Shown: positions 49,389 to 64,000 of the stretch, one piece after another | How positions within the stretch are numbered: the first letter of the stretch is position 1 | Layout: every line of letters begins with the position of its first letter | The notes under the pieces: model-generated | Told to the model about the DNA's origin: nothing | What the model saw: the letters and a program-made list of their open reading frames with translations, nothing else | Database searches by the model: none | Assembly (NCBI GenBank): GCA_965203805.1 | Contig: OZ241917.1 | Span: 1,248,001 to 1,312,000 of the forward strand | Source: Candidatus Latescibacterota bacterium | Lineage (GTDB): Bacteria; Latescibacterota; UBA2968; GCA-2709665 | Direction of reading: 5' to 3' | Length of the DNA stretch: 64,000 nt | Position numbers and translations under genes: made by a program

Positions 49389-52300
49389 TTACGTACCAAC
49401 CGGATCATAGGCGAGGTCGAATACCTTGTCAGTCATCCAGCGCTTGAAGCCCGGATTGTCCATGAACTGCTTGAACAGCTGGGTGTCGTCCTTCATCATC
49501 GCAGTCATCACTCGCACCAGAGCTGTATCGTGCTCGATCCGGGCATTCTGGCGGTCGGAGTTCTGCCGGGCGTTCTGGAACGCGGTGTCGGCAGCCACGC
49601 GGGCGGGAATGGTCTCTATGATGAGTTGCTCCACGCGGTCGCGATCTTCCCACTGAATATCACCAAAGTGTTCGTTGAAGTCCCGAAGTATGTTGGAAAG
49701 CCGATCCAATTCCAACTCCGGTTGATGTCCTCCGCCGGCCGTCGGTACCGGATCGATCTCTGCATCCTCGTCCGGCAACAGGATCTGTTGCATCGCCCGC
49801 TTCTCAACCCGGTAGCTGTCCAGATCGATCGCATCGAGGATCCCTTTGGAAAGGTCCTCCTCCTCGGGAGCGGGTAACTTCGGGACCAGGAAGTTGAGGA
49901 AAATCGAACGCTTTTCCCATTCCGCATTGTTGTAGTGAAGGATGGATGAAAGGAAGGCGTAGGTCCTCACGAAGGCCTTGGCCCTGCCCTTGAACGCGAC
50001 CTGGCCGTCTTCGTCCAGATCGCTTCGATAGACCGCAACACAAGCATCCAGGATGGGATCGAGACGGTCGCGTTCGGCCCCTTCCAGGTAGAGCCGCACA
50101 AAATCCTCGATCTGCATATCCGAATAGACCTGTGCGCCGTCCAGGTCCGCCTGCAGGTCGTGGAGCTTGTTCGGGTCGGTCTCGTCGGCCAGAATCGTCG
50201 TCCGGTAGAAGTCAGCGAACGCATCGCGGATGGTGTCCGTATCGTTGAGAAAATCAAGTACGAACACATCGTGCTTCTGCGGCTGAGCGCGGTTCAGGCG
50301 GGAAAGCGTCTGCACGGCCTTGATGCCGGACAGCGTCTTATCCACGTACATCGTGTGCAGCAGGGGCTCGTCGTACCCGGTCTGAAACTTGTCCGCGCAG
50401 ACCAGGAACCGGTAAGGGTCCTCCCGGAATCGCCCGGCGATCTGCGATGAGGGCAGGCCGTTCAAAGACGCCTCGCTGACTTTGGCGCCGCCGTATTCGT
50501 GCTCTCCTGAGAAAGCGACCAGGACCTGGTACTGGCTTTTCCGCTCCTTGAGATAGGTACGGATGGCGTGATAGTACTGAATCGCGCGCGCAATGCCGTT
50601 TGTGACCACCATTGCCCGCGCCGATCCGCCGATCTTTCCCTGCTTCAACACCTGGTCGTGGAAATGGTCGACCATGATCTCGGCCTTGAGGCGAATCGCG
50701 TGGTCGCTTCCTTCCACGAACCGGCGCAGCTTCCTTTGCGCCTTACGCACGTCGAACTCAGGATCGTCTTCAACCGTCTTGGCGAGCTTGTAGTAGCTGT
50801 TCACCGGCGTGTAGCGGGCGAGAACGTCGAGGATGAATCCTTCCTGAATGGCCTGCTTCATGGTGTAGCTATGAAAGGCCCGATGGCTCACCGTTCCGTC
50901 GGGCTGCGGGTCCGGCGCGCCGAAAATCTCGAGCGTCTTGTTCTTGGGTGTGGCGGTAAACGCGAAATAGCTGGCGTTGGGAAGCAGTTTCCGCGACTCC
51001 ATCAGGCGGTTAATCCGGTCTTCGAAGGTATCCTGATCGTCATCTTCTCCCGCTTCCGAAAGCGCCTGCGCCATGGCCGCGCTGGTGCGCCCCCCCTGGC
51101 TTGAATGGGCTTCGTCGATAATGATGGCGAAGCGTTTGCCCCGTTGCTCGTTGCCGATCTCGTCCAGGATGAACGGAAATTTCTGGACCGTGGAAATGAT
51201 GATCTTCTTTCCGCTTTCGATGAAGCGGCGCAGATCTCCCGAGGCGTCGGCGTGTCCTACCGTCGCCGCCACCTGGGCGTACTGTTTGATCGTGTCGCGG
51301 ATCTGCCGGTCCAGGATGAGCCTGTCCGTGACGACGATGATCGAGTCGAAAACAGGAGCGTCATCCTTCTCCAGGCCGATCAACTGGTGGGCAAGCCAGG
51401 CGATTGAGTTGCTCTTCCCACTGCCGGCGGAATGCTGGATCAGGTAGCGCTGTCCGGCGCCTCGTGCGCCCGAATCTTCCAGCAGCCGGCGAACCACGTC
51501 GAGTTGATGGAAACGCGGCCAGACCTGCGTCCTCCGGTTCTTACCGCTCTTCTCATCCTTCGACTCCACCACTTGCGCGTAGTTCTCAAGGATGTTGGCG
51601 AGACTCTCACGCGTGAGGACATCCCGCCACAGGTAGGCGACCGCGAGACCCTCCGGGTTGGGCGGATTGCCCGCGCCGTCGTTCCAGCCACGGTTAAAGG
51701 GAAGAAACCACGAAGCCTTCCCCTTCAGGTGGGTGCAAAAACGCACCTCACGCTCGTCCAACGCGAAGTGCGCGATACACCGCCCGAAGCCAAACAGCTT
51801 TTCTCGCGGATTCCGGTCTTTTCGGTACTGCCAGACCGCATCGTCCACCGTCTGTTTGGTCAGGCTGTTTTTCAATTCGAACGTGAACACGGGCAGCCCG
51901 TTGATGAAGAGCCCGATGTCCAGCGCCCGTTGCGCCTCGTCCCGGCTGTAGCGAAGCTGGCGGGTGACCGTGAAGCGGTTTTGTTCGAAGCGTTCCTGTG
52001 CGTTCGGGTTGTCCGGCGAAGGCGTACCGTAAAACAGATCCAGGTACAGCGGTCCGTGCTTGATCCCGTTGCGCAGCATGTCGATCGTACCGCGCTTGTT
52101 GATCTCGCCCTGTAGCCGACTCAAAAACGCGCGCCGGGTCGGTCCGTCCTTGGAAAACGATAGCGACTCGACGGCCTTGGGTTGCGTGTTCCGCAAGAAC
52201 GCCGACAATTGGACCAGATCGACGCAGTACTCCTGATCGTAATCGTGGGGATTGCCGCAACTCCAGCCAACGCCCCCATAACCGGCAGGAGGCTCTGCCA

Positions 52301-52391
52301 CGGTCCCGGAGGTCGGCGGCTCGCAGGCATTGCCCGTCAGGCCGGTGCAAATCAGGCGTTCAAGTCCGCGTTCGGAGGTGTCTGTGTTCAA
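49389..52391 (-). CDS. hsdR: Type I restriction enzyme subunit R
   Basis: DIGLFINGLPVFTFELK nuclease motif, HSAGSGKS, DEAH, FTATP, KFQTGYDEP, QTLSRLNR. Confidence 0.95.
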   Translation of the reverse strand: MNTDTSERGLERLICTGLTGNACEPPTSGTVAEPPAGYGGVGWSCGNPHDYDQEYCVDLVQLSAFLRNTQPKAVESLSFSKDGPTRRAFLSRLQGEINKRGTIDMLRNGIKHGPLYLDLFYGTPSPDNPNAQERFEQNRFTVTRQLRYSRDEAQRALDIGLFINGLPVFTFELKNSLTKQTVDDAVWQYRKDRNPREKLFGFGRCIAHFALDEREVRFCTHLKGKASWFLPFNRGWNDGAGNPPNPEGLAVAYLWRDVLTRESLANILENYAQVVESKDEKSGKNRRTQVWPRFHQLDVVRRLLEDSGARGAGQRYLIQHSAGSGKSNSIAWLAHQLIGLEKDDAPVFDSIIVVTDRLILDRQIRDTIKQYAQVAATVGHADASGDLRRFIESGKKIIISTVQKFPFILDEIGNEQRGKRFAIIIDEAHSSQGGRTSAAMAQALSEAGEDDDQDTFEDRINRLMESRKLLPNASYFAFTATPKNKTLEIFGAPDPQPDGTVSHRAFHSYTMKQAIQEGFILDVLARYTPVNSYYKLAKTVEDDPEFDVRKAQRKLRRFVEGSDHAIRLKAEIMVDHFHDQVLKQGKIGGSARAMVVTNGIARAIQYYHAIRTYLKERKSQYQVLVAFSGEHEYGGAKVSEASLNGLPSSQIAGRFREDPYRFLVCADKFQTGYDEPLLHTMYVDKTLSGIKAVQTLSRLNRAQPQKHDVFVLDFLNDTDTIRDAFADFYRTTILADETDPNKLHDLQADLDGAQVYSDMQIEDFVRLYLEGAERDRLDPILDACVAVYRSDLDEDGQVAFKGRAKAFVRTYAFLSSILHYNNAEWEKRSIFLNFLVPKLPAPEEEDLSKGILDAIDLDSYRVEKRAMQQILLPDEDAEIDPVPTAGGGHQPELELDRLSNILRDFNEHFGDIQWEDRDRVEQLIIETIPARVAADTAFQNARQNSDRQNARIEHDTALVRVMTAMMKDDTQLFKQFMDNPGFKRWMTDKVFDLAYDPVGT

Positions 52392-52818: not shown

Positions 52819-53160
52819 TTACCCGCCCTTGGGATCCTGGCGTTCGACAGCGGCCGCTGCCTCGGCTTCGGCCCTTGCCCTGGCCCGGTCGTACAGCTCC
52901 TCTCGAGACAGGTTGTCGGCGGCCCTGAATCCGGGTGAAGTGGTGCGAATTTTCTCAATGACCTCGCTCAACATCCTGCGCCGACGCTTGGCCTCTGGCT
53001 CCGTGACCGTCCCGTTGTCGGCTGCGCCGCCTGCGCGGTCCGATGCCAGACTCTTCAGGTAGTCTCGCACGAGGGCCGATACCGACGTGTCCAATTCTGC
53101 CGCACGGATGCGCGCGAGCCGATGTGTCTCTTCGTCGACGGATACGGTGATATTTCTCAT
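52819..53160 (-). CDS. VapB-like antitoxin (RHH)
   Basis: MRNITVSVDEE...TSVSALVRDYL...LSREELYDR, upstream of the PIN gene. Confidence 0.82.
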   Translation of the reverse strand: MRNITVSVDEETHRLARIRAAELDTSVSALVRDYLKSLASDRAGGAADNGTVTEPEAKRRRRMLSEVIEKIRTTSPGFRAADNLSREELYDRARARAEAEAAAAVERQDPKGG

Positions 53161-53200
53161 AGTCACAGCCTCACAGTTTCTGTGTATCACAATATACGCA

Positions 53201-53371: not shown

Positions 53372-53603
53372 GGCTGCTCACCGGCACGGGCGCCTTCAGG
53401 GAGTCTGCCACGTATTGCAGGACGGCTCTCACCTTCCATTCGTCGACGGGCGCGAACCACTCCATGAACTCCTTGATGGTGGCACCGGCCTCCAGGTTCT
53501 CAAACAGGGCCGATACGGGCAGTCTACTGTCGGTGAAGAGCCAGGCACCGCTGACCTTGCCAGGGATTCGCTCCACCCCAGGGCACTTCGACCAATCAAT
53601 CAT
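53355..53603 (-). CDS. DUF433 antitoxin
   Basis: PGKVSGAWLFTDSRLPVSALFENLEAGATIKEFMEWF. Confidence 0.88.
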   Translation of the reverse strand: MIDWSKCPGVERIPGKVSGAWLFTDSRLPVSALFENLEAGATIKEFMEWFAPVDEWKVRAVLQYVADSLKAPVPVSSLEDTV

Positions 53604-53626
53604 GTCCTCTCCTCCTCTGCAACTGG

Positions 53627-53653
53627 GTACTCTTCTGCCGATTCTTCGGCGTC
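53627..53653 (-). repeat. Orphan copy of the hsdS 3' tail
   Basis: 26/27 match to 56991-57017 (DAEESAEEY); likewise ends in an ATGA overlap with a DUF433 start. Confidence 0.8.
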
Positions 53654-53732
53654 CGCCAGGCGTCTGTGGTCAAACTGTAACCGTGCAGTGGTTCACCACA
53701 ATCGAATTCGTCGCCGTTGCCGGTGGGGCTGC

Positions 53733-53797
53733 TCGTCGACGGATACGGTGATGTTCTTTATAGTCACAGTCTCACAGTTTCTGTGTGTCACAATATA
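53733..53797 (-). pseudogene. Degenerate copy of the antitoxin promoter and 5' end
   Basis: Near-identical to 53132-53196, with start ATG changed to ATA. Confidence 0.8.
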
Positions 53798-53959: not shown

Positions 53960-54562
53960 TCAAGAGTTCCTTCTCCGCATCCGCCTACCCAGGTCGTATT
54001 CACATCCACCCCGCCTATCGAAGGTTACATTCACAAGAAACTCAAGGTTTCGGGGAGTGAGTTTTCCCCAAGGCACGACTGAAACGTGCGCCTTAGGTGC
54101 AAGTAGATTATCAATTATTCGATCGGGCAAATGGGGATATCTCATTTCATATTCGGCGCGGTTGTCGATTGTCCCCCAAGATCCTATATCCGGATGGATT
54201 AGGCGTTTTTCCTCATCACCATGTGCTGCAGTGACGTATGTACATTGGGTGGAAGGCAAGTTGACAACAAGGATTCCAGACTTTTTGTTCCTGACGCCAT
54301 CAAACATGCTTGAGTACAGCTCCCAATCGATGTGTTTCCGCCACTTCGTTTCCGTACCGACGAGAAGAATTGTAACGGTTGAGTCTCGTAGATAATCATC
54401 ACGTATCTTCTCGCGTATTGTCTCATCGCTCAACTCTTCGGAGATGTCCCCGCTATCTACGGATCTATCGATGAAAACGCCAAAGTTCGTACCCATCTCA
54501 ATCAAACCATTCTTATAGGCTTGGTCGTTCTCGTGATGATAGCTGACAAACACTTTATGCAT
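53960..54562 (-). CDS. TIR domain protein (ThsB / MTH538-like)
   Basis: HKVFVSYHH, STVTILLVG, KHIDWEL with candidate catalytic Glu, GILVVNLP. Confidence 0.88.
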   Translation of the reverse strand: MHKVFVSYHHENDQAYKNGLIEMGTNFGVFIDRSVDSGDISEELSDETIREKIRDDYLRDSTVTILLVGTETKWRKHIDWELYSSMFDGVRNKKSGILVVNLPSTQCTYVTAAHGDEEKRLIHPDIGSWGTIDNRAEYEMRYPHLPDRIIDNLLAPKAHVSVVPWGKLTPRNLEFLVNVTFDRRGGCEYDLGRRMRRRNS

Positions 54563-55064
54563 AAGTTCGATCCCTTTCTGAGAAAGATTCTATCAAAATC
54601 CGCTGCGCCGTACAGGCCTTGCCTTCATCGGTTTGTGAATTTAGGCAAAAGGCGACTATCCCGATGACACAGATAAGCAGGAAGCCTAAAGGCATCAGCA
54701 GCCCAGTGTATTTCCGCCTAAAAAATCGACGTTTCTCAAATTCCTCCGTCTCGCGACCGAGAAAGTTGTATGGCAGGTCTTTTTCCAAAGTCACAAGTAC
54801 TTTGTGCTTTGCAGCCAGCCGGCCCGTCACGGAATGCAGCGAAAACATCCAGGAGAGGGATACAAGAATCCCCAACAGATACAGTACCCAGATCGTCTCA
54901 GTGCCCGGCGCCAGCTTGTGAAGGAGTACCGATGCTGCGACTATACTGGTGACCATTCCTGAATATAGCTTGTTCAAGCTCTCTCGAAGCGAAGCTACTC
55001 GTTCCGCAAGTTCGGCGTGGAGCTTATACGTCTCAAGCAACAATTTTCTATTGTCACCACTCAT
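54555..55064 (-). CDS. Small membrane effector-like protein (RipA/Pycsar-effector-like architecture)
   Basis: LLETYKLHAELAERVASLR..N helix, hydrophobic segments, AKHKVL..LE..LP; overlaps the TIR start. Confidence 0.65.
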   Translation of the reverse strand: MSGDNRKLLLETYKLHAELAERVASLRESLNKLYSGMVTSIVAASVLLHKLAPGTETIWVLYLLGILVSLSWMFSLHSVTGRLAAKHKVLVTLEKDLPYNFLGRETEEFEKRRFFRRKYTGLLMPLGFLLICVIGIVAFCLNSQTDEGKACTAQRILIESFSERDRTYA

Positions 55065-55207
55065 GCGGACTCCCTTCGCACACAGATCGGATCCAGTACC
55101 CGCTTGCACGAGAATGTTGCAACCGTGACGTCGACAGCGCATTGCGAGGGTATAACCTACAATCGCAAATCTACGTCAAAGGTCCCACACGAAGCTTTTT
55201 AAACAGC

Positions 55208-55678
55208 CTACAAGACATTCTCGCAAATCCACTCGTCTAATTCGCCCCGATCACGCAACCGCTCCAGAGCTCTCACTACCGTCGGCGAATTGTTAACCCA
55301 GTTATACATGATTCTTGCACGAGGCTTCTGCATGGCGTGTGCCCCGCCAATTTCGTAACCGATCCACATTGAAACCGCGATCGCAGCAGTCACGTTGACC
55401 AAGAAACCGTCACTATCGAGGATCGTGGTCATGATGTAGTCCGGTAATTCGTCTGAGTCCGTGTCGACATTATCGTCCCACTCAGCCATGTAAACCATGA
55501 CCCTGTGCGTGTTTACGATATATTCTGCTTCTCGTTCGGCCTTCCAATCGTCGGTTTTGTGAGACATGAAGACCAACCTGCTTTCAGGCGTCCTTTCGAG
55601 CACCAAATGCTCTGCAAAGACCTGTGAAACGGTTTCAGGGCGATGGAACCTTACCAATTTGTTGAATCTAAGTGCCAT
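55208..55678 (-). CDS. TIR-like domain protein, paralog 2
   Basis: VFMSHKT, DGFLVNV, SMWIGYEIGGA. Confidence 0.78.
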   Translation of the reverse strand: MALRFNKLVRFHRPETVSQVFAEHLVLERTPESRLVFMSHKTDDWKAEREAEYIVNTHRVMVYMAEWDDNVDTDSDELPDYIMTTILDSDGFLVNVTAAIAVSMWIGYEIGGAHAMQKPRARIMYNWVNNSPTVVRALERLRDRGELDEWICENVL

Positions 55679-55852
55679 AACTTTGTACACCAGAATCGAA
55701 GTTGAAGCACCAGCCCGTCCTGACGAAACGGTTGCTTTGCGCCCTAAGCAGTTCGCTTACTATACGCAATGAAACGTGAAATCGTCAGCATAGTCAGTAA
55801 TATCCAATTGCCAAGAGATGTTCGAGTGCTTGTACTTAGCCACCCGAACGAC

Positions 55853-56323
55853 TTATAGAATATTCTTCAAGATCCAATGGTCTACCTCGTACCGATTGCG
55901 CAACCGCTCCAGAGCATTCACTACAGACGGCAGACCCGCTATCGAGTCGTACATGATCTTAGCACGAGGCTTCTGCATCGCATGTGCCCCACCAATCTCG
56001 TAACCAATCCACATTGAAATCCTGATCGCAGCGATTACATTGACCAGAAATCCGTCACATTTGCGGATGGCATTCATAATGTAATCCGGCAATTCGTCCG
56101 AATCATCCTCAACATTGTCGTCCCATTCGGCCATGTAAACCATCACACCGGGCAAGAGCACGATGCGCCTTGCTTCCCGCTCGGCTTGCCAATCGCCGGT
56201 CTTGTGAGACATGAACACGATTTTATCGGTAGCGGCCTTAGTGCGTACTACCTGTTCGGCCAAATACCGGGTGTCGATTTCAGCGTGATCTCGTCGAACC
56301 AATCTGTTGAATCTAACCGCCAT
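55853..56323 (-). CDS. TIR-like domain protein, paralog 1
   Basis: VFMSHKT, AIRKCDGFLV, SMWIGYEIGGA. Confidence 0.78.
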   Translation of the reverse strand: MAVRFNRLVRRDHAEIDTRYLAEQVVRTKAATDKIVFMSHKTGDWQAEREARRIVLLPGVMVYMAEWDDNVEDDSDELPDYIMNAIRKCDGFLVNVIAAIRISMWIGYEIGGAHAMQKPRAKIMYDSIAGLPSVVNALERLRNRYEVDHWILKNIL

Positions 56324-56738: not shown

Positions 56739-56967
56739 TCAGGTTCGGATTGGCGTTCTGAGATGGTCAGCTTCGTGTTTCAGTACGACCGGGACCTGCC
56801 ACGGCCTCACTTCGGTGAACCACTCGAGGAACTGACTCAATGGTGGCCCCGCTCTCTCGGTCTTCAAAAAGAGCCACTACCGGCAACTTTTTTTCGGTGA
56901 ACGCAATGGCTCCGCCGATCTTCCTGTCATTTCGTTCGACTGCCAAGAAGTTGCTTCAGTCGGTCAT
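56739..56967 (-). pseudogene. DUF433 antitoxin pseudogene
   Basis: MTD*SNFLAVER..KIGGAIAFTEKKLPVVALFEDRESGATI / QFLEWF; nonsense codon and frameshift; aligns with 53355-53603. Confidence 0.75.
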
Positions 56968-58418
56968 ACGGTCATTTCGTCTTCGGCTGCGTACTCTTCT
57001 GCCGATTCCTCGGCGTCGGTGTAGTCGTCTTTGGGAAGCGTGTCGAGTTCCGGAAGTTCGGCCGCCGCTTCGCGCACGTCAAGCTTGCCGGTGACGACAT
57101 CGGCGATCAGGCGGGTGCGGTACTCTTGGATTAAGTCGATTTCTCGTTTTAACCGACCAATCGCATAATCCAGGCTGTTCGTTTTCTCAGAGATTACGTC
57201 AAGTATGGCTGCTTGCACTTCCAGAACTGGAAGAAAAACCGGAAATCTGCGCAGTGTGCTGCTATTGGTGGAGGCGAGGTTCGTCGTCTGCTTTGCTGTT
57301 AATTCGAAATATGTCCGTCCGTGTATCGACCCCATGAGTCCAACAAGAAATTCTGGGCTAAGGAGTCCTCGCTTACAACGCACCGCAAAGATGTGATTCT
57401 GGTGTAAACATCCAGGAATCTCATCTCGCCATACACATCCACGCCCGAGTTTGTCGATATCTCCACCTTCTGTCATCAGAACATCCCCCGTCAACACGGT
57501 GCTCCGATTCGCCTCATTCAGCGGCACACTGATAGACTTGATGTTTGTCAGGTCCAAACATCCTGCCTGAACATTAGCGACGCGTAAGTATGGTCGAGAT
57601 ATTGTTCGCGTACTACTGTAGTCCTTGCCCAACGTTAGACCTGTTTGAACCTGCGCTACATCCTTGAGACGGTGAAGTTGCCAATCCTCCGGCACCTGTC
57701 CTAGCCACTTCACACCTGACGGCTTGTAAGCCGGGTAGGGCTTTCCGGTTCGGACGTCGATCTGGCCTGTGACGGCCTGATGGATGATAGCCTGTTTCTG
57801 CTCCTCCAGCAGCGAAATCAGCCTCTGTTTGGCGCGGATGTAGCGCTGGATGCGCCGGTCGGCGTGGTCGAGGAAGCGGACGATGGCGGTTTGTTCGGCG
57901 AGGGGAGGGACACATGTGTAAATCATCTTGAAGTGTTCAGGACGCAGACTCCACATATCCGACGTAATGCCATAAGACCATCGCTCAGTCTCCTTTGCGA
58001 ATCCGGGCGTCCGGAACAGAAAATGGACGAAGTCAGAATCAACGCCATCGCGTGGACGTTGTACGATGTAGGCCGGACTTACGATGCCTTGGTAATCAGA
58101 AGCTCCGAAGGCGCCCTGCCAGGCTCGCATTTTGTTATATGCTATGTATCCGGGCCGGACCAATTTGTAGGCAGACTTATCCAGGTTCGAACCGTCTTTC
58201 TTTGTGCTGTCCTCCAGAAGCTGATTCTGAAGGATGACTCCCCGTTTGATCGTTACGGAGAGCATCGGTTCCTCTGGATGATCACGTTCCTTCACTTCTT
58301 CAAAGAGTGTGCGATTAGGTAAAACCTCCCAGTGGGACGGAACTTTACCCAACCACTTTACTCCGGAATCCTTCATTTTGGGATACGGCCACAATTCGTT
58401 GGTTTTCGAAAACTGCAT
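56964..58418 (-). CDS. hsdS: Type I RM specificity subunit S
   Basis: DSGVKWLGKVPSHW and PSGVKWLGQVPEDW repeats, PPLAEQTAIVRFLD, EYRTRLIADVVTGKLDVR. Confidence 0.93.
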   Translation of the reverse strand: MQFSKTNELWPYPKMKDSGVKWLGKVPSHWEVLPNRTLFEEVKERDHPEEPMLSVTIKRGVILQNQLLEDSTKKDGSNLDKSAYKLVRPGYIAYNKMRAWQGAFGASDYQGIVSPAYIVQRPRDGVDSDFVHFLFRTPGFAKETERWSYGITSDMWSLRPEHFKMIYTCVPPLAEQTAIVRFLDHADRRIQRYIRAKQRLISLLEEQKQAIIHQAVTGQIDVRTGKPYPAYKPSGVKWLGQVPEDWQLHRLKDVAQVQTGLTLGKDYSSTRTISRPYLRVANVQAGCLDLTNIKSISVPLNEANRSTVLTGDVLMTEGGDIDKLGRGCVWRDEIPGCLHQNHIFAVRCKRGLLSPEFLVGLMGSIHGRTYFELTAKQTTNLASTNSSTLRRFPVFLPVLEVQAAILDVISEKTNSLDYAIGRLKREIDLIQEYRTRLIADVVTGKLDVREAAAELPELDTLPKDDYTDAEESAEEYAAEDEMTV

Positions 58419-58701: not shown

Positions 58702-59085
58702 CTATCGAGCAGCGATGTCATCCAGCTTTGCGTTGATCGTCTTCCATCTCCATGGGATCGGGTCTTCAAGCGAGGATAGCCCACTATACGGCCTATCCTG
58801 AGCCACGATTTGGATGGTAGGCTTGCTGAGGCTGCGGGCTAACTCCGTTTCGACGATGACGCCGGGAGCGTTGTGCGTGTCTTGACCGATCAGGACGACT
58901 ACTACGTCACACTCTGCGATGGCCTTTTTCGCCTGGTTCTTCCAGTCTTCATCCGGGTACGCCTCATTGAGAGAGCAGTTGTGTACGCGATGTTGGGTAT
59001 GTTCTTTTGCCTGTTCGAAGAAGCTATTCTTGAGGTCGTGGTCTTTATCAAACTCAAAACTCACAAAAATGCTGAGACGCGGCAT
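58702..59085 (-). CDS. TIR domain protein (MTH538/ThsB-like)
   Basis: IFVSFEFDKD, CDVVVVLIGQDTHNAPGVIVETELA. Confidence 0.85.
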   Translation of the reverse strand: MPRLSIFVSFEFDKDHDLKNSFFEQAKEHTQHRVHNCSLNEAYPDEDWKNQAKKAIAECDVVVVLIGQDTHNAPGVIVETELARSLSKPTIQIVAQDRPYSGLSSLEDPIPWRWKTINAKLDDIAAR

Positions 59086-59229: not shown

Positions 59230-59330
59230 GTCATCCTGCGTATGGATGCCAAAACCGGAGGTGCTTGCTGAATAACCCCTGTCTACTTCATCTTCGCTGG
59301 TTTCAATAATGATCCCGGTGCTGGTCGTCA
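59230..59330 (-). pseudogene. HicB-like antitoxin remnant (approximate limits)
   Basis: IIIETSEDEVDRGYSASTSGFGIHTQDDT resembles a HicB N-terminal fold, then diverges. Confidence 0.45.
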
Positions 59331-59360
59331 CTCGCTCTTGCACTTTCGTTTCCCTTCGGG

Positions 59361-59576
59361 TCAGCCGTCGCGACGGTCTGTTGGCCTGTTCTGTGTCGAA
59401 TTGCGAATCCGCGCGGCCATCGCTTCCAGCACGGGGTCGGAATACCGCCTGGAATTGAACCACTCCACCGTTTCCTCTGCTGTCATGTCGGCGGTTTCGG
59501 CAGTAATGCGGGCGCGGGCCTTGCGCATGAACTCGACACAGTCGAAATTCTTCTTGCGGCGGGGCTCTTCAGTCAT
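59361..59576 (-). CDS. Small 'FDC' protein B2 (putative antitoxin)
   Basis: KKNFDCVEFMRKARARITAETADMT; near-identical to 62421-62636. Confidence 0.7.
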   Translation of the reverse strand: MTEEPRRKKNFDCVEFMRKARARITAETADMTAEETVEWFNSRRYSDPVLEAMAARIRNSTQNRPTDRRDG

Positions 59577-59726
59577 GGACGATTTCCTCGGGCGCGCAAA
59601 TGTCGATAGCACCGAATCCATTCTGACAATTGACCTCGTTGCAGGCCCTGATGCCATGCCAGTTCACCATCTGTCTGAAGCTCCAGCTTGCGCTGAAAGC
59701 CTCCACTCCCTTCCCGATCTTCATCA

Positions 59727-60255: not shown

Positions 60256-60920
60256 TTGAGGGTGGTCAGGTCCCAGGTGTGAGCAGCAGAGGCCAGACCC
60301 GGGCGTGGTCAGAATTCATGGGTCTGAGTTAGCCATGACTTCCTTGTGTTCTACAGGTATTCAACATGCCCGGCCATCTCTTCGGCTTCCAAAACCTGAT
60401 AGATCAACATCAAGCCACGAATTATCTCACCAACCGTGTTTTCTTGAGACGTGTAGACAATTCCTCTGTGGTCAGGTACAATTGCTGCAAGACGAAGAAA
60501 GTCATCGTCCTGCGTGAAGATGACTCGTTCTGTTTCCCTGGCAATTCCAAGGATTACCTCGTCTGACGCACCAAGATTCCCGGCTTCGGCAACAGTCAGT
60601 ACGTCCACGCCTCTCCGACGGAGCCCCATTACAATTGCTCTGGAGACATTCTCATGGAAGCTCTGATTAAGTTACCTATTGGCACGCCATGCAGAAAGTC
60701 GTAGAATTGGAGCGTGAGCCGTCGTGTTGTGATTTCTGATGGATCGACATAGAACGAGGGGCCCAGGGATGAAACAAATGAGTTTTTCGGATCTGGCGTA
60801 CAGGACGAAGAAGAAGCAGACGCGCAGGGAACGTTTTCTGAAAGAGATGGATGCGGTGTTGCCGTGGGAGATACTGCTTAAATCGATTGAGAGGAAGTAT
60901 CCGAAACCTGGCAACGGTCG

Positions 60921-60947
60921 CCTGCCTGCCGAGTCGGCGCAGGCAGG
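60921..60947 (+). mobile_element. 27-bp palindromic mini-insertion CCTGCCTGCCGAGTCGGCGCAGGCAGG
   Basis: Removal restores GNGRRPIG. Confidence 0.88.
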
Positions 60948-61057
60948 TCGTCCGATCGGTGCGGAGGTGATGCTGCGTATCTACTTTATGCAACAATGGT
61001 ATGGATTGAGCGATCCGGGAATGGAAGACAGTCTCTACGACGTGGAGTCGATGCGTC

Positions 61058-61076
61058 CCTGCCTGCTGCAGGCAGG
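61058..61076 (+). mobile_element. 19-bp palindromic mini-insertion CCTGCCTGCTGCAGGCAGG
   Basis: Removal restores the frame and ESMRRFAGVNINGVPDETT. Confidence 0.9.
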
Positions 61077-61612
61077 GCTTTGCGGGTGTGAACATCAACG
61101 GCGTACCTGATGAGACGACGATCTGCAAATTCCGTCACTTTCTGGAGCACCATGGGTTGACGGAAGCGTTGTTTCGGCAAACGAAGCGCTACTTGTCCAG
61201 GCGGGGATTGATCGTGAACGAAGGCACGATCGTGGATGCCACGATCATTCACGCGCCTTCTTCGACGAAGAACAAGGATCGGAAACGGGATCCTGAAATG
61301 GCCAGCACGAAGAAGGGCAACACGTGGCATTTCGGCATGAAGGCGCACGTGGGCGCGGATGTGAAGGGACGGGTGCACAGTGTGGTGACCACCCCCGCTT
61401 CGGTGCATGATTCGCAGGCGATGGATGCCTGTCTGCACGGAAAAGAAAAGACCATCTACGGCGACAAGGCCTATGCGGATCAGACGCGAAAAGAACGGGC
61501 CGAAGCCAACGACGTGGAATGGCGAGTGCTTCGCAAGGCCCGCCGGGGCAAGCGGCTCAACTGCGCGGATGTTTCGTTCAACAAGAAGAGCAATCGCACG
61601 CGCGCACGGGTC

Positions 61613-61648
61613 CCTGCCTGTGCGTGCTGTCTCACGCACGCAGACAGG
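61613..61648 (+). mobile_element. 36-bp palindromic mini-insertion CCTGCCTGTGCGTGCTGTCTCACGCACGCAGACAGG
   Basis: Removal restores RARVEHPF, the DDE Glu motif. Confidence 0.9.
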
Positions 61649-61981
61649 GAACATCCCTTTGGGATCATCAAACACCTGTGGGGCTACCGAAAGGTCAGGT
61701 ATCGCGGTCTGGCGAAGAATACGGCGCATCTGTTCACCTTGTTTGCCTTGGCTAACTTCCATATGGCACGTCAGGAACTGGCTACTACATAGGCACCCGT
61801 GCCTCCAATTCGGACGCTGGCGGCCAAAATGGCCGGCACCGAGCGCATCCGGGGCCGGAATCACCCGTGCAAACCCGAAAGATGACGACCCTCTCAACAT
61901 AAACAGCCTCCGAAACGACCCATAAGTTACAACTTGCTCATTCCCTCTGGTTGATCAGAGGTTCCCTCATCGGTCAAAAAC

Positions 61982-62311: not shown

Positions 62312-62420
62312 CTCCTCCTGAGTTCAGCGACCGTCACGGAGCCCTCACGTTCATCGCCGACATCAAAGAAGAACCGGGGTCGGGGCGTCGCCCGCCCTTG
62401 CGCGTCAGTTTCCCTTCGGT

Positions 62421-62636
62421 TCAGCCGTCGGGACTGTCTGTTGCCCTGTTCTCATTCGATTTGCGTATTCGCGCGGCCATTGCTTCCAGCACAGGGTCGG
62501 AATACCGCCTGGAATTGAACCACTCTATCCGTTCGTCAGCAGTCATATCGGCGGTTTCGGCCGTAATGCGGGCGCGGGCCTGGCGCATGAATTTGACACA
62601 GTCGAAATTCTTCTTGTGGCGGGGGCTTTCAGACAT
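62421..62636 (-). CDS. Small 'FDC' protein B1 (putative antitoxin)
   Basis: KKNFDCVKFMRQARARITAETADMT; start uncertain. Confidence 0.7.
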   Translation of the reverse strand: MSESPRHKKNFDCVKFMRQARARITAETADMTADERIEWFNSRRYSDPVLEAMAARIRKSNENRATDSPDG

Positions 62637-62900
62637 GGACGATTTTCTCATGGGCTCGATTGTCGATCGTGGCGTATCCATTGACGCCATTGCAGAGCAC
62701 GATGCGCATGAATCCTTCTATGCGGGAAAAGGCTTTAGGTCGGGGATCATGGAGTTACCCATAGAGAGTATCTCGTACTTCGCGATTGAATAAACCAAAA
62801 AGACCCGCAACGTCGGCAATGATTCAGTCAAGCGTCCCGACTCGCTCGTCCCGATGCCTCGGTACGGTCTCGCCGTGCCGGCTGCTTGTCAAGCCATTGA

Positions 62901-63104
62901 TCAGGGTTCATTCTCTTTGTCTTTTTCCGATTCGCGCAATGGCGCCGCCAGTCGTTCCAGAACAGGATCTTCATAGCGATACGTGCGATAGTACTGGATT
63001 CGCTCTGCAGGGCTCATGCCGGCTGTTTCTGCGGCAATCCTCGCACGAACCTCACGCACAAAGCGGATGCAGTCGAACCTCTCGGTTGCGGTATCATTTG
63101 TCAT
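62901..63104 (-). CDS. Small 'FDC' protein A1 (putative antitoxin of the upstream PIN)
   Basis: FDCIRFVREVRARIAAETAGMSPAER...DPVLE; overlaps the PIN stop. Confidence 0.7.
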   Translation of the reverse strand: MTNDTATERFDCIRFVREVRARIAAETAGMSPAERIQYYRTYRYEDPVLERLAAPLRESEKDKENEP

Positions 63105-64000
63105 AGCTGATCGCCTCCGGGGATAGGACGTTCAATTCCTCGTACCCCATTTGCCGGTTGACTGCGTTGTACAACCGGTTTCGTCGCCAGTTCACCATGT
63201 GCCTGAAATTCCAGCTTGCCAAAACGTCGGCCTCAGCCAGGGTTGCCAGGGCGATATGCTCCGCGTCGGCGCGGTTCGCAAGGCCGAGAGCCCCGGAACC
63301 AATGTATGCGTCCGCAAGCCGTTCTGCCTCATCTGTGAGAAAGAGCATCTCTTTGTTCGCAGCGGGAATCTGATCGATCACATTGCGCACGCTTTCCGGT
63401 GCCCCCGCCAGTTCCCTGAGAATGACTTCTGAATAAACGAGGATAGCATCTCCGTGCTTGAACTTATCAAACAACTCCATGGATGCCTCACGGACCTCAT
63501 CGTCCAGACATCCGCCGATCACCGAGGTGTCCACGTAGATGCGCGGCTTGCCGTACACAGCCGGCGGTTCCCGCACCATCGGCAGGTCGCCGAGTAACCC
63601 CTCGGTCTCTTTCTCCAGCGCTCTGATATCCACCCCGATCTCCTCCAACGTCCGCATCGGCTGGGGTTTGTAGAAGTACCGCGTGAAGCTGATTTCATAG
63701 CCGATCCTGACACTGTCGGGTCGGTACCAGGCGTCAGGCGCGTAGGGCAGGACCTCCCGCTGCAGGAACGCTTCGATGCCGCCCTCCTCTTGCAGCGGAA
63801 TCTGCTCTGTGTCGCGCAGGTCGGTGTCCGGTTCGTACTCGACCACGGCAGTCTTGCCGTTGACGGTAGCCTCAAAACGTCCACGTAGCGGGTCGGCTTC
63901 CGTGCCCTTTCTGTGGATCTTCTTGATAACGGGCGGCGCGGCTTCGCTACGCTCGCCGGTTTCCTTCATCTTCTTGATTTCGGCGGCCTTATAGGCACGG
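63094..64000 (-). CDS. hsdM: Type I RM methyltransferase HsdM C-terminus fused in frame to a PIN domain (5' part outside window)
   Basis: YEPDTDLRDTEQIP, REVLPYAPDAW, IGYEISFTRYFY (HsdM tail), then RIYVDTSVIGG...DAEHIALA...SWNFRHMVN (PIN) with no stop between. Confidence 0.85.
   Translation of the reverse strand, partial: RAYKAAEIKKMKETGERSEAAPPVIKKIHRKGTEADPLRGRFEATVNGKTAVVEYEPDTDLRDTEQIPLQEEGGIEAFLQREVLPYAPDAWYRPDSVRIGYEISFTRYFYKPQPMRTLEEIGVDIRALEKETEGLLGDLPMVREPPAVYGKPRIYVDTSVIGGCLDDEVREASMELFDKFKHGDAILVYSEVILRELAGAPESVRNVIDQIPAANKEMLFLTDEAERLADAYIGSGALGLANRADAEHIALATLAEADVLASWNFRHMVNWRRNRLYNAVNRQMGYEELNVLSPEAISYDK

Follow-up and report, generated by a model that had tools for sequence, protein, structure and literature searches.

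We analysed a stretch of 64,000 nucleotides from a Candidatus Latescibacterota bacterium (GenBank assembly GCA_965203805.1, contig OZ241917.1, positions 1,248,001 to 1,312,000 of the forward strand), hereafter called the window, in which a cluster of TIR genes surrounds a gene for a small membrane protein of the Pfam family 8xMP (PF24838). A TIR gene together with an 8xMP gene is a real, conserved module. By analogy with Thoeris systems that use membrane effectors, we think it probable that this cassette is a Thoeris-type anti-phage system, in which a signal derived from ADP-ribose (ADPR) and made by the TIR protein would open a ring of 8xMP subunits. The TIR and 8xMP genes of the window are as follows, with clade names that are our own labels.

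TIR-A: positions 55853 to 56323, minus strand; 156 amino acids (aa), WIGYE clade, with Glu109 at the candidate catalytic position.
TIR-B: positions 55208 to 55678, minus strand; 156 aa from the ATG, or 160 aa from a GTG at 55690; WIGYE clade, directly 5′ of the candidate effector gene.
8xMP (RipA-family) membrane protein: positions 54555 to 55064, minus strand; 169 aa, with its ATG behind AAGGGAG; candidate effector.
ThsB-like TIR: positions 53960 to 54562, minus strand; 200 aa, IDWE clade, Glu81.
Additional ThsB-like TIR: positions 58702 to 59085, minus strand; 127 aa, Glu79, upstream of hsdS; PF08937 match with an E value of 1.1e-5.

An earlier, sequence-only reading of the window had described four co-oriented genes of lower GC content between hsdS and hsdR, in a defence setting. 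This description is correct. Four open reading frames on the minus strand occupy positions 53960 to 56323 in the reading order TIR-A, TIR-B, 8xMP, ThsB-like TIR, within a type I restriction-modification (R-M) locus, and the start of the ThsB-like TIR gene overlaps the end of the 8xMP gene by 8 nt. The GC content is 48.9% in the cluster and 59.0% in the genome as a whole; values as low as this occur in 3.2% of genome windows of the same size. The inventory of four genes was right as far as it went, but it missed the fourth TIR gene at 58702 to 59085 as well as the DUF433, antitoxin and PIN genes that separate the cluster from hsdR.

The membrane protein had been taken for a minimal pore-forming effector. 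It is in fact a member of a recognised family, matching 8xMP with an E value of 3.5e-14 and 53.2 bits (cut-off 30) over positions 1–134 of 136. A structural model with a predicted local distance difference test (pLDDT) score of 89.4 contains a long helical hairpin (residues 3–51 and 56–94), a short helix (101–111) and a third membrane helix (117–145); hydropathy analysis likewise gave three segments, the first of them weak. Residues 78–119 contain 11 Lys/Arg and 6 Asp/Glu, while the loop at 52–56 contains none. Since this charge distribution fits such an orientation, the N-terminus and the basic region are probably cytoplasmic. Among 125 aligned 8xMP rows, Trp72 and Glu94 are invariant and Tyr13, Arg27, Lys86, Glu105 and Pro125 nearly so. 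The idea that the protein acts as an oligomer in the membrane gained some support from a four-copy model, in which the self-association score was 0.47 compared with 0.00 for the best control. In the calibration of this score, 20 of 30 proteins known to form pairs and 1 of 23 single chains attained the mark; the four-copy runs, whose contacts agreed to at least 85% with a pLDDT of at least 71, lie outside that calibration in using four copies and a custom alignment. One copy in the model contacts two neighbours through different faces, head-to-tail, and Glu105 lies close to Lys86 of the adjacent copy. The window 8xMP protein is thus predicted to be a three-helix membrane protein that self-associates.

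Searches for relatives of known structure gave little. A sequence search of the PDB with 8xMP returned nothing under an E value of 0.1, Foldseek with the 8xMP model returned nothing under 0.001, and all leads from the ESM Atlas were below 0.8. The VIA-align matches were all helical bundles of a generic kind (best Z 10.1, root-mean-square deviation 5.1, 139 residues aligned), which does not imply a new fold. The family is large, with 999 representatives at an E value of 0.001, and in this phylum 21 of the 168 genomes have members over the Pfam cut-off. None of the defence-effector models of PADLOC 2.0 matched the window protein or 12 other 8xMP domains. Used as a query against viral contigs, plasmids and phages, the window protein found no relative; a core-family query matched 32 plasmid records. 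None of these 32 is enterobacterial, which is weak evidence on whether the E. coli systems TIR-I to TIR-IX (PMC11350192) use 8xMP. The domain also occurs inside longer proteins, including P0188 (859 aa) and L030:736-1983 (L numbers denote our loci), one of which has an AAA_21 ATPase region; these may be real fusions or artefacts of gene calling.

The conservation of the TIR-8xMP pair, which the sequence-only reading had proposed as a check, was found in both directions. A TIR was counted when it lay within 1.5 kb of 8xMP, using TIR profiles built from Pfam-confirmed TIRs. By this measure a TIR accompanied 8xMP in 10 of 11 close relatives among GTDB genomes, drawn from five phyla; at the eleventh (L009:3730-5896) a UPF0236 frame separates the two, and the TIR is 1.7 kb distant. 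At one locus (L005:185-793) the TIR that precedes 8xMP is split in two. Within this phylum, 17 of 23 loci over the cut-off had a TIR (two of these 23 are in tandem in one genome, and for two more places no locus was obtained), as did 9 of the 12 plasmid loci examined among the 32 matches. These 12 loci span Pseudomonadota, Bacillota, Actinomycetota, cyanobacteria and haloarchaea, and a tenth has a weak TIR_2 neighbour. Two-gene homologues of the module occur on Polaromonas and Synechococcus plasmids (L066 and L070). For comparison, control loci below the cut-off had a TIR within 1.5 kb in 1 of 6 and 0 of 16 cases, and for randomly chosen positions in this genome the share was 0.34%, which is slightly too low since the profiles miss some TIRs. 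For some of the counts the neighbouring TIRs are also backed by Pfam or by annotation. Searches that started instead from the WIGYE TIRs alone led to four separate loci beyond this genome (L051, L057/58, L059 and L060-62), and at all four 8xMP lies directly downstream, within 55 bases. Four weaker TIR matches from these searches lack 8xMP in that place; one of them adjoins a caspase gene. Finally, when the 120 best matches of each protein were compared, 25 lay on identically sized contigs, whereas shifted controls gave 0.36 on average, which is indirect evidence for linkage.

These data bear on the suggestion that there is no functional link at all and that 8xMP is a general membrane protein which merely shares mobile defence hotspots with TIR genes. 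TIR-free members of the family do exist, some of them in housekeeping settings, the R-M loci of this genome gather many passengers, and RipA, of the same family, is described in PMC4688374 as an inner-membrane protein that modulates LpxA. Against this, TIR and 8xMP are usually within about 130 bases of each other and co-oriented, in bacteria and in haloarchaea, and the association is reciprocal. We regard mere cohabitation as the least probable of the explanations considered here.

The layout of four genes had been treated as the unit of the system. It is not: in four loci (L003, L008, L010 and L060) 8xMP stands alone with a single TIR, and this pair is the minimal unit. The sole TIR is of the IDWE ThsB type in L003 and of the WIGYE type in the other three. 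In a tree of 38 8xMP rows, the bootstrap of which is not fully settled, the window protein falls in a clade of 14 rows with support of 100/100 and a stem of 2.73. Members of this one clade are paired with four TIR clades: WIGYE, IDWE, HEDD (followed by Nmad2) and WVPFE. Such interchangeability is expected if the TIR and the membrane protein communicate by a diffusible signal, and it supports the signalling reading.

The roles could instead be reversed or direct: 8xMP would sense the phage, or serve as a membrane scaffold for the TIRs, which through physical contact would act as NAD+-depleting effectors, so that no diffusible signal would be needed. TIRs are effectors in CBASS, Pycsar and SPARTA, the TIRs of SARM1 and SPARTA rank high in our Foldseek results, a TIR-8xMP fusion exists, and a recent preprint (Yirmiya et al., bioRxiv 10.64898/2025.12.03.692087) warns that some putative Thoeris types may have TIR effectors. 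However, TIRs only 13–18% identical to the window ThsB serve a single 8xMP clade whose close members are mostly 55–70% identical. A fixed protein interface is difficult to reconcile with this. The partners are moreover of the ThsB type (PF08937, PADLOC ThsB1), and there is no cyclase or Argonaute among the scanned neighbours. We consider action by direct contact unlikely.

The TIR proteins themselves fit such a role. PADLOC, another check proposed earlier, assigned TIR-A and TIR-B to ThsB1 (PDLC00436; E values 2.1e-8 and 3.3e-8, respectively), so that the TIR part of the prediction held, but it matched the membrane protein to no defence-effector model. The Pfam scores of TIR-A and TIR-B are weak (TIR_2 at 0.014 for TIR-B). 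The ThsB-like TIR at 53960 to 54562 exceeds the PF08937 cut-off with an E value of 1.6e-18, and the upstream TIR at 58702 to 59085 does so with 26.2 bits (cut-off 21.2). The AlphaFold model of TIR-A (pLDDT 90.9) shows a TIR fold with an N-terminal extension of one strand and one helix. In the Foldseek search, also proposed with the earlier reading, it matched the SARM1 TIR with an E value of 2.9e-5, in addition to nucleoside deoxyribosyltransferases and SPARTA TIRs. A profile of 67 rows from the WIGYE clade matches B. cereus ThsB (8BTN, E value 6.5e-4) and AbTIR with the Glu aligned. As had been noticed, the motif WIGYE is present in both TIR-A and TIR-B and IDWE in the ThsB-like TIR; in the profile matches WIGYE aligns with WMPWE and WTNYE of 8BTN and AbTIR. 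The claim that all TIRs keep a candidate catalytic Glu was also borne out, as every one of the 19 TIRs in the alignment (19 of 19), the four of the locus among them, has Glu in this column. In AbTIR and BcThsB this Glu is the catalytic residue.

TIR-A and TIR-B had been called paralogues, and with 63% identity they are clearly related. They are not, however, each other's closest relatives: by tree distance each ranks far down the other's list (64 and 43 of 66), each being closer to proteins of other genomes. The two genes thus look stacked rather than recently duplicated, and we rejected a recent duplication in place on the same ranks. The names of some WIGYE homologues (Ca. Poribacteria and Ca. 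Palauibacter irciniicola) suggest that sponge symbionts may be a reservoir of these TIRs.

Not every TIR of the locus need serve the membrane protein. In one alternative only the WIGYE TIRs feed 8xMP; the other two, the IDWE ThsB and the TIR upstream of hsdS, would either be passengers or act in trans on different effectors, for instance at the SLOG-cluster2 locus elsewhere in this genome. The IDWE ThsB has a paralogue, 65% identical, beside TIR_2 and SLOG-cluster2 genes at 694–698 kb of the contig; locus L007 has the order WIGYE TIR, 8xMP, ThsB, TIR_2 protein, SLOG; and in L008, L010 and L060 a WIGYE TIR and 8xMP suffice. Yet in L003 8xMP has no neighbouring TIR other than an IDWE ThsB, in the window the start of this gene overlaps the 8xMP stop, and the order WIGYE TIR, 8xMP, IDWE TIR recurs in L057. 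We find it very unlikely that the wiring is partial in this way. On the reading in which all TIRs signal to 8xMP, the upstream TIR, which aligns with TIRs flanking 8xMP in L018, L024 and L064, may feed the same effector. The paralogous ThsB belongs to a type III-like Thoeris locus at contig positions 694318 to 698056 (L047:6316-10057, minus strand), in another R-M-like region, which also encodes two TIR_2 proteins and the SLOG-cluster2 protein. Two further ThsB-like TIR genes, near contig positions 2951811 (L048) and 4100494 (L042), lie in R-M-like regions with other partners.

The absence of ThsA had been read as the sign of a new kind of system. This was an overstatement. The preprint cited above lists 29 putative Thoeris types and validates types V–XI, among them two with membrane-only effectors that have no separate ligand-binding domain. 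Type V combines ThsB with ThsF/DUF2270 (PF10028) and uses 3′ cyclic ADPR (3′cADPR) as its signal; type VII combines ThsB with ThsH/SLATT and uses cyclic ADPR (cADPR). Because such effectors are already validated, TIR plus 8xMP would add a new family of effectors to an established scheme and would not be a new kind of system. The locus has the broad features of Thoeris: a stand-alone ThsB-type TIR, a retained Glu, a conserved adjacent effector gene, and 16 scanned neighbouring proteins among which no CBASS, Pycsar, Argonaute or Avs family was found.

The likeness to type V lies in a TIR partner and in an effector with three membrane helices, which in 8xMP are predicted; the preprint models the type V effector as a homo-oligomeric ring whose pockets lie where subunits meet. 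The effector here is of PF24838, not PF10028. No match of PF10028 to the window membrane protein was found at an E value of 0.1, nor any in the 168 genomes of the phylum, this one included. Two DUF2270 proteins touch the 8xMP Pfam profile at an E value of about 0.008, and over 121 DUF2270 proteins that profile scored a median of 3.3 bits, compared with −0.2 when reversed. Direct membership of DUF2270 was rejected, since PF10028 does not match and HHalign gives a probability of 1.4%. With type VII the cassette shares a TIR and a small membrane effector that oligomerises (here by prediction), and SLATT and 8xMP occur in one operon in L039. The window membrane protein has no SLATT Pfam match, and SLATT membership was likewise rejected, as HHalign aligned the 8xMP profile to one SLATT protein with 0.1% probability.

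The TIR-A/B family profile matches B. cereus ThsB of type I with the Glu aligned, but no SIR2-SLOG ThsA lies beside the window TIRs. Neither STALD (PF18185) nor ThsA_Macro (PF20016) was matched in the genome, which is weak evidence of absence as the control searches were silent too. The 169-aa membrane protein has no Macro match, in contrast to type II. Unlike type III, there is no SLOG effector at the locus, the SLOG-cluster2 locus being about 600 kb away. Several TIRs serving one effector have a parallel in the multi-TIR system ThsA-B1-B2, as described in PMC12578639. On these comparisons, the module most likely works like type V or type VII without belonging to either. It may be that 8xMP is among the unvalidated putative membrane effectors of the preprint, the accessible text of which contains no mention of RipA or PF24838. 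We found no literature that pairs 8xMP, PF24838 or RipA with TIR defence, including the supplement of PMC13069673, in a search that left most subscription papers outside.

Operons that combine 8xMP with other effectors of the Thoeris type are consistent with this placement: SLOG cluster2 in L007, a caspase in L065 and SLATT in L039. In the plasmid locus L065:995-3308 (NZ_CP065633.1), genes for a caspase, a TIR, 8xMP and a TIR follow in a row, as if a type IV-like pair and an 8xMP module were combined. A trio of 8xMP, a ThsB-like TIR and Nmad2 (PF18753) is conserved in six loci (L001, L002, L004, L005, L006 and L011), sometimes with MazG or dCTP-deaminase genes nearby, and is possibly a subtype tied to modified nucleotides.

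Drawing on types V and VII, we infer the following course of events. Each TIR would sense a phage protein on infection and, once activated, would convert NAD+ into an ADPR-derived messenger. This messenger would bind between 8xMP subunits at the conserved polar residues Tyr13, Lys14, Arg27, Asn31, Lys86, Glu94 and Glu105, whereupon the predicted ring would open in the inner membrane and breach it. The infected cell would be halted, that is, abortive infection would follow, and additional TIRs would let the system recognise a broader range of phages.

Several points count against the scheme and the linkage on which it draws. No ligand-binding domain or pocket has been shown for 8xMP, the four-copy calculation falls outside its calibration as stated above, and the HHalign probability of 1.4% means that homology to DUF2270 is at most remote. 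The TIR-8xMP fusion (P0238) was seen once, on a single 1.7-kb contig. The TIR profiles were seeded from the same loci that they were used to score, and related genomes are not independent. A clear TIR is absent at 6 of the 23 phylum loci and 3 of the 12 plasmid loci, and in a sample of 400 Gammaproteobacteria genomes only 2 of 13 8xMP loci over the cut-off had a TIR nearby. That last set includes housekeeping RipA-like genes (L083, L085), truncated contigs (L078, L081, L088) and probable false matches (L089, L090). Loci without a TIR indicate that the family has TIR-independent members.

Two of these TIR-free members resemble what we take to be Francisella RipA; the name, the RipA residue numbers and the reading of a neighbouring gene as S1-like are our assumptions. 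The 178-aa RipA-like protein belongs to the same family and aligns with 8xMP at 99% probability, with Tyr13, Lys86 and Glu94 conserved. The RipA-like genes (L083, L085) differ in context: they adjoin Sua5 and a gene resembling that for ribosomal protein S1, and a TIR is absent. These RipA-like proteins sit on a long branch (2.86), which points to a possible domestication of the family. The window clade also departs from the core family at cytoplasmic polar sites, where Arg26, Tyr79, Asn83 and Glu121 are replaced and Arg82, His87, Arg116 and Arg117 are gained. A bolder reading would join these observations: 8xMP would be an unrecognised, cross-domain family of Thoeris effectors, the long-branch subfamily of the window would have rewired its cytoplasmic polar residues for an undescribed signal made by at least four interchangeable TIR clades, and RipA would be a domesticated immune pore. 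This full version is speculative, and we give it a low probability.

The R-M locus around the cluster contains three R-M genes.

hsdS: positions 56964 to 58418, minus strand; type I R-M, PADLOC Specificity_I with an E value of 3.8e-100.
hsdR: positions 49389 to 52391, minus strand; type I R-M, PADLOC REase_I with an E value of 3.5e-44 and TIGR00348 with 2.9e-57.
hsdM: window positions 63094 to 64000, contig positions 1311094 to 1313538, minus strand; type I R-M, a single frame of 814 codons that crosses the window end.

The C-terminal part of hsdM has a weak PIN_3 match (E value 0.028) and is possibly an HsdM-PIN fusion. The four cluster proteins had no matches above the NCBIfam cut-offs. Inspection by eye of the minus strand in the 640 bases from hsdS to TIR-A revealed no evident gene, and a scan for promoters and terminators did no better than shuffles (6 versus 3.4 ± 1.8 and 2 versus 3.3 ± 2.0). 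Toxin-antitoxin-type genes and a transposase are also present in the locus. Small-gene pieces are repeated at 59323-59622 and 62383-62682 (84% identical), at 53118-53196 and 53719-53797 (86%), and at 53454-53653 and 56817-57017 (68%), which suggests repeated insertion and decay of toxin-antitoxin-type modules. On the plus strand at 60739 to 61792, two successive frames look like one frameshifted transposase, presumably of the IS5 type.

If the signalling reading is correct, a common family whose role has been obscure, and which PADLOC 2.0 misses, would gain a function, and a family of immune effectors would be connected to RipA. It would also add a small Thoeris effector that could show how a nucleotide is recognised by a bare ring of three-helix subunits. 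Since the signals of several Thoeris types have yet to be identified, the two-gene combination of one TIR and 8xMP could lead directly to a messenger that is possibly new.

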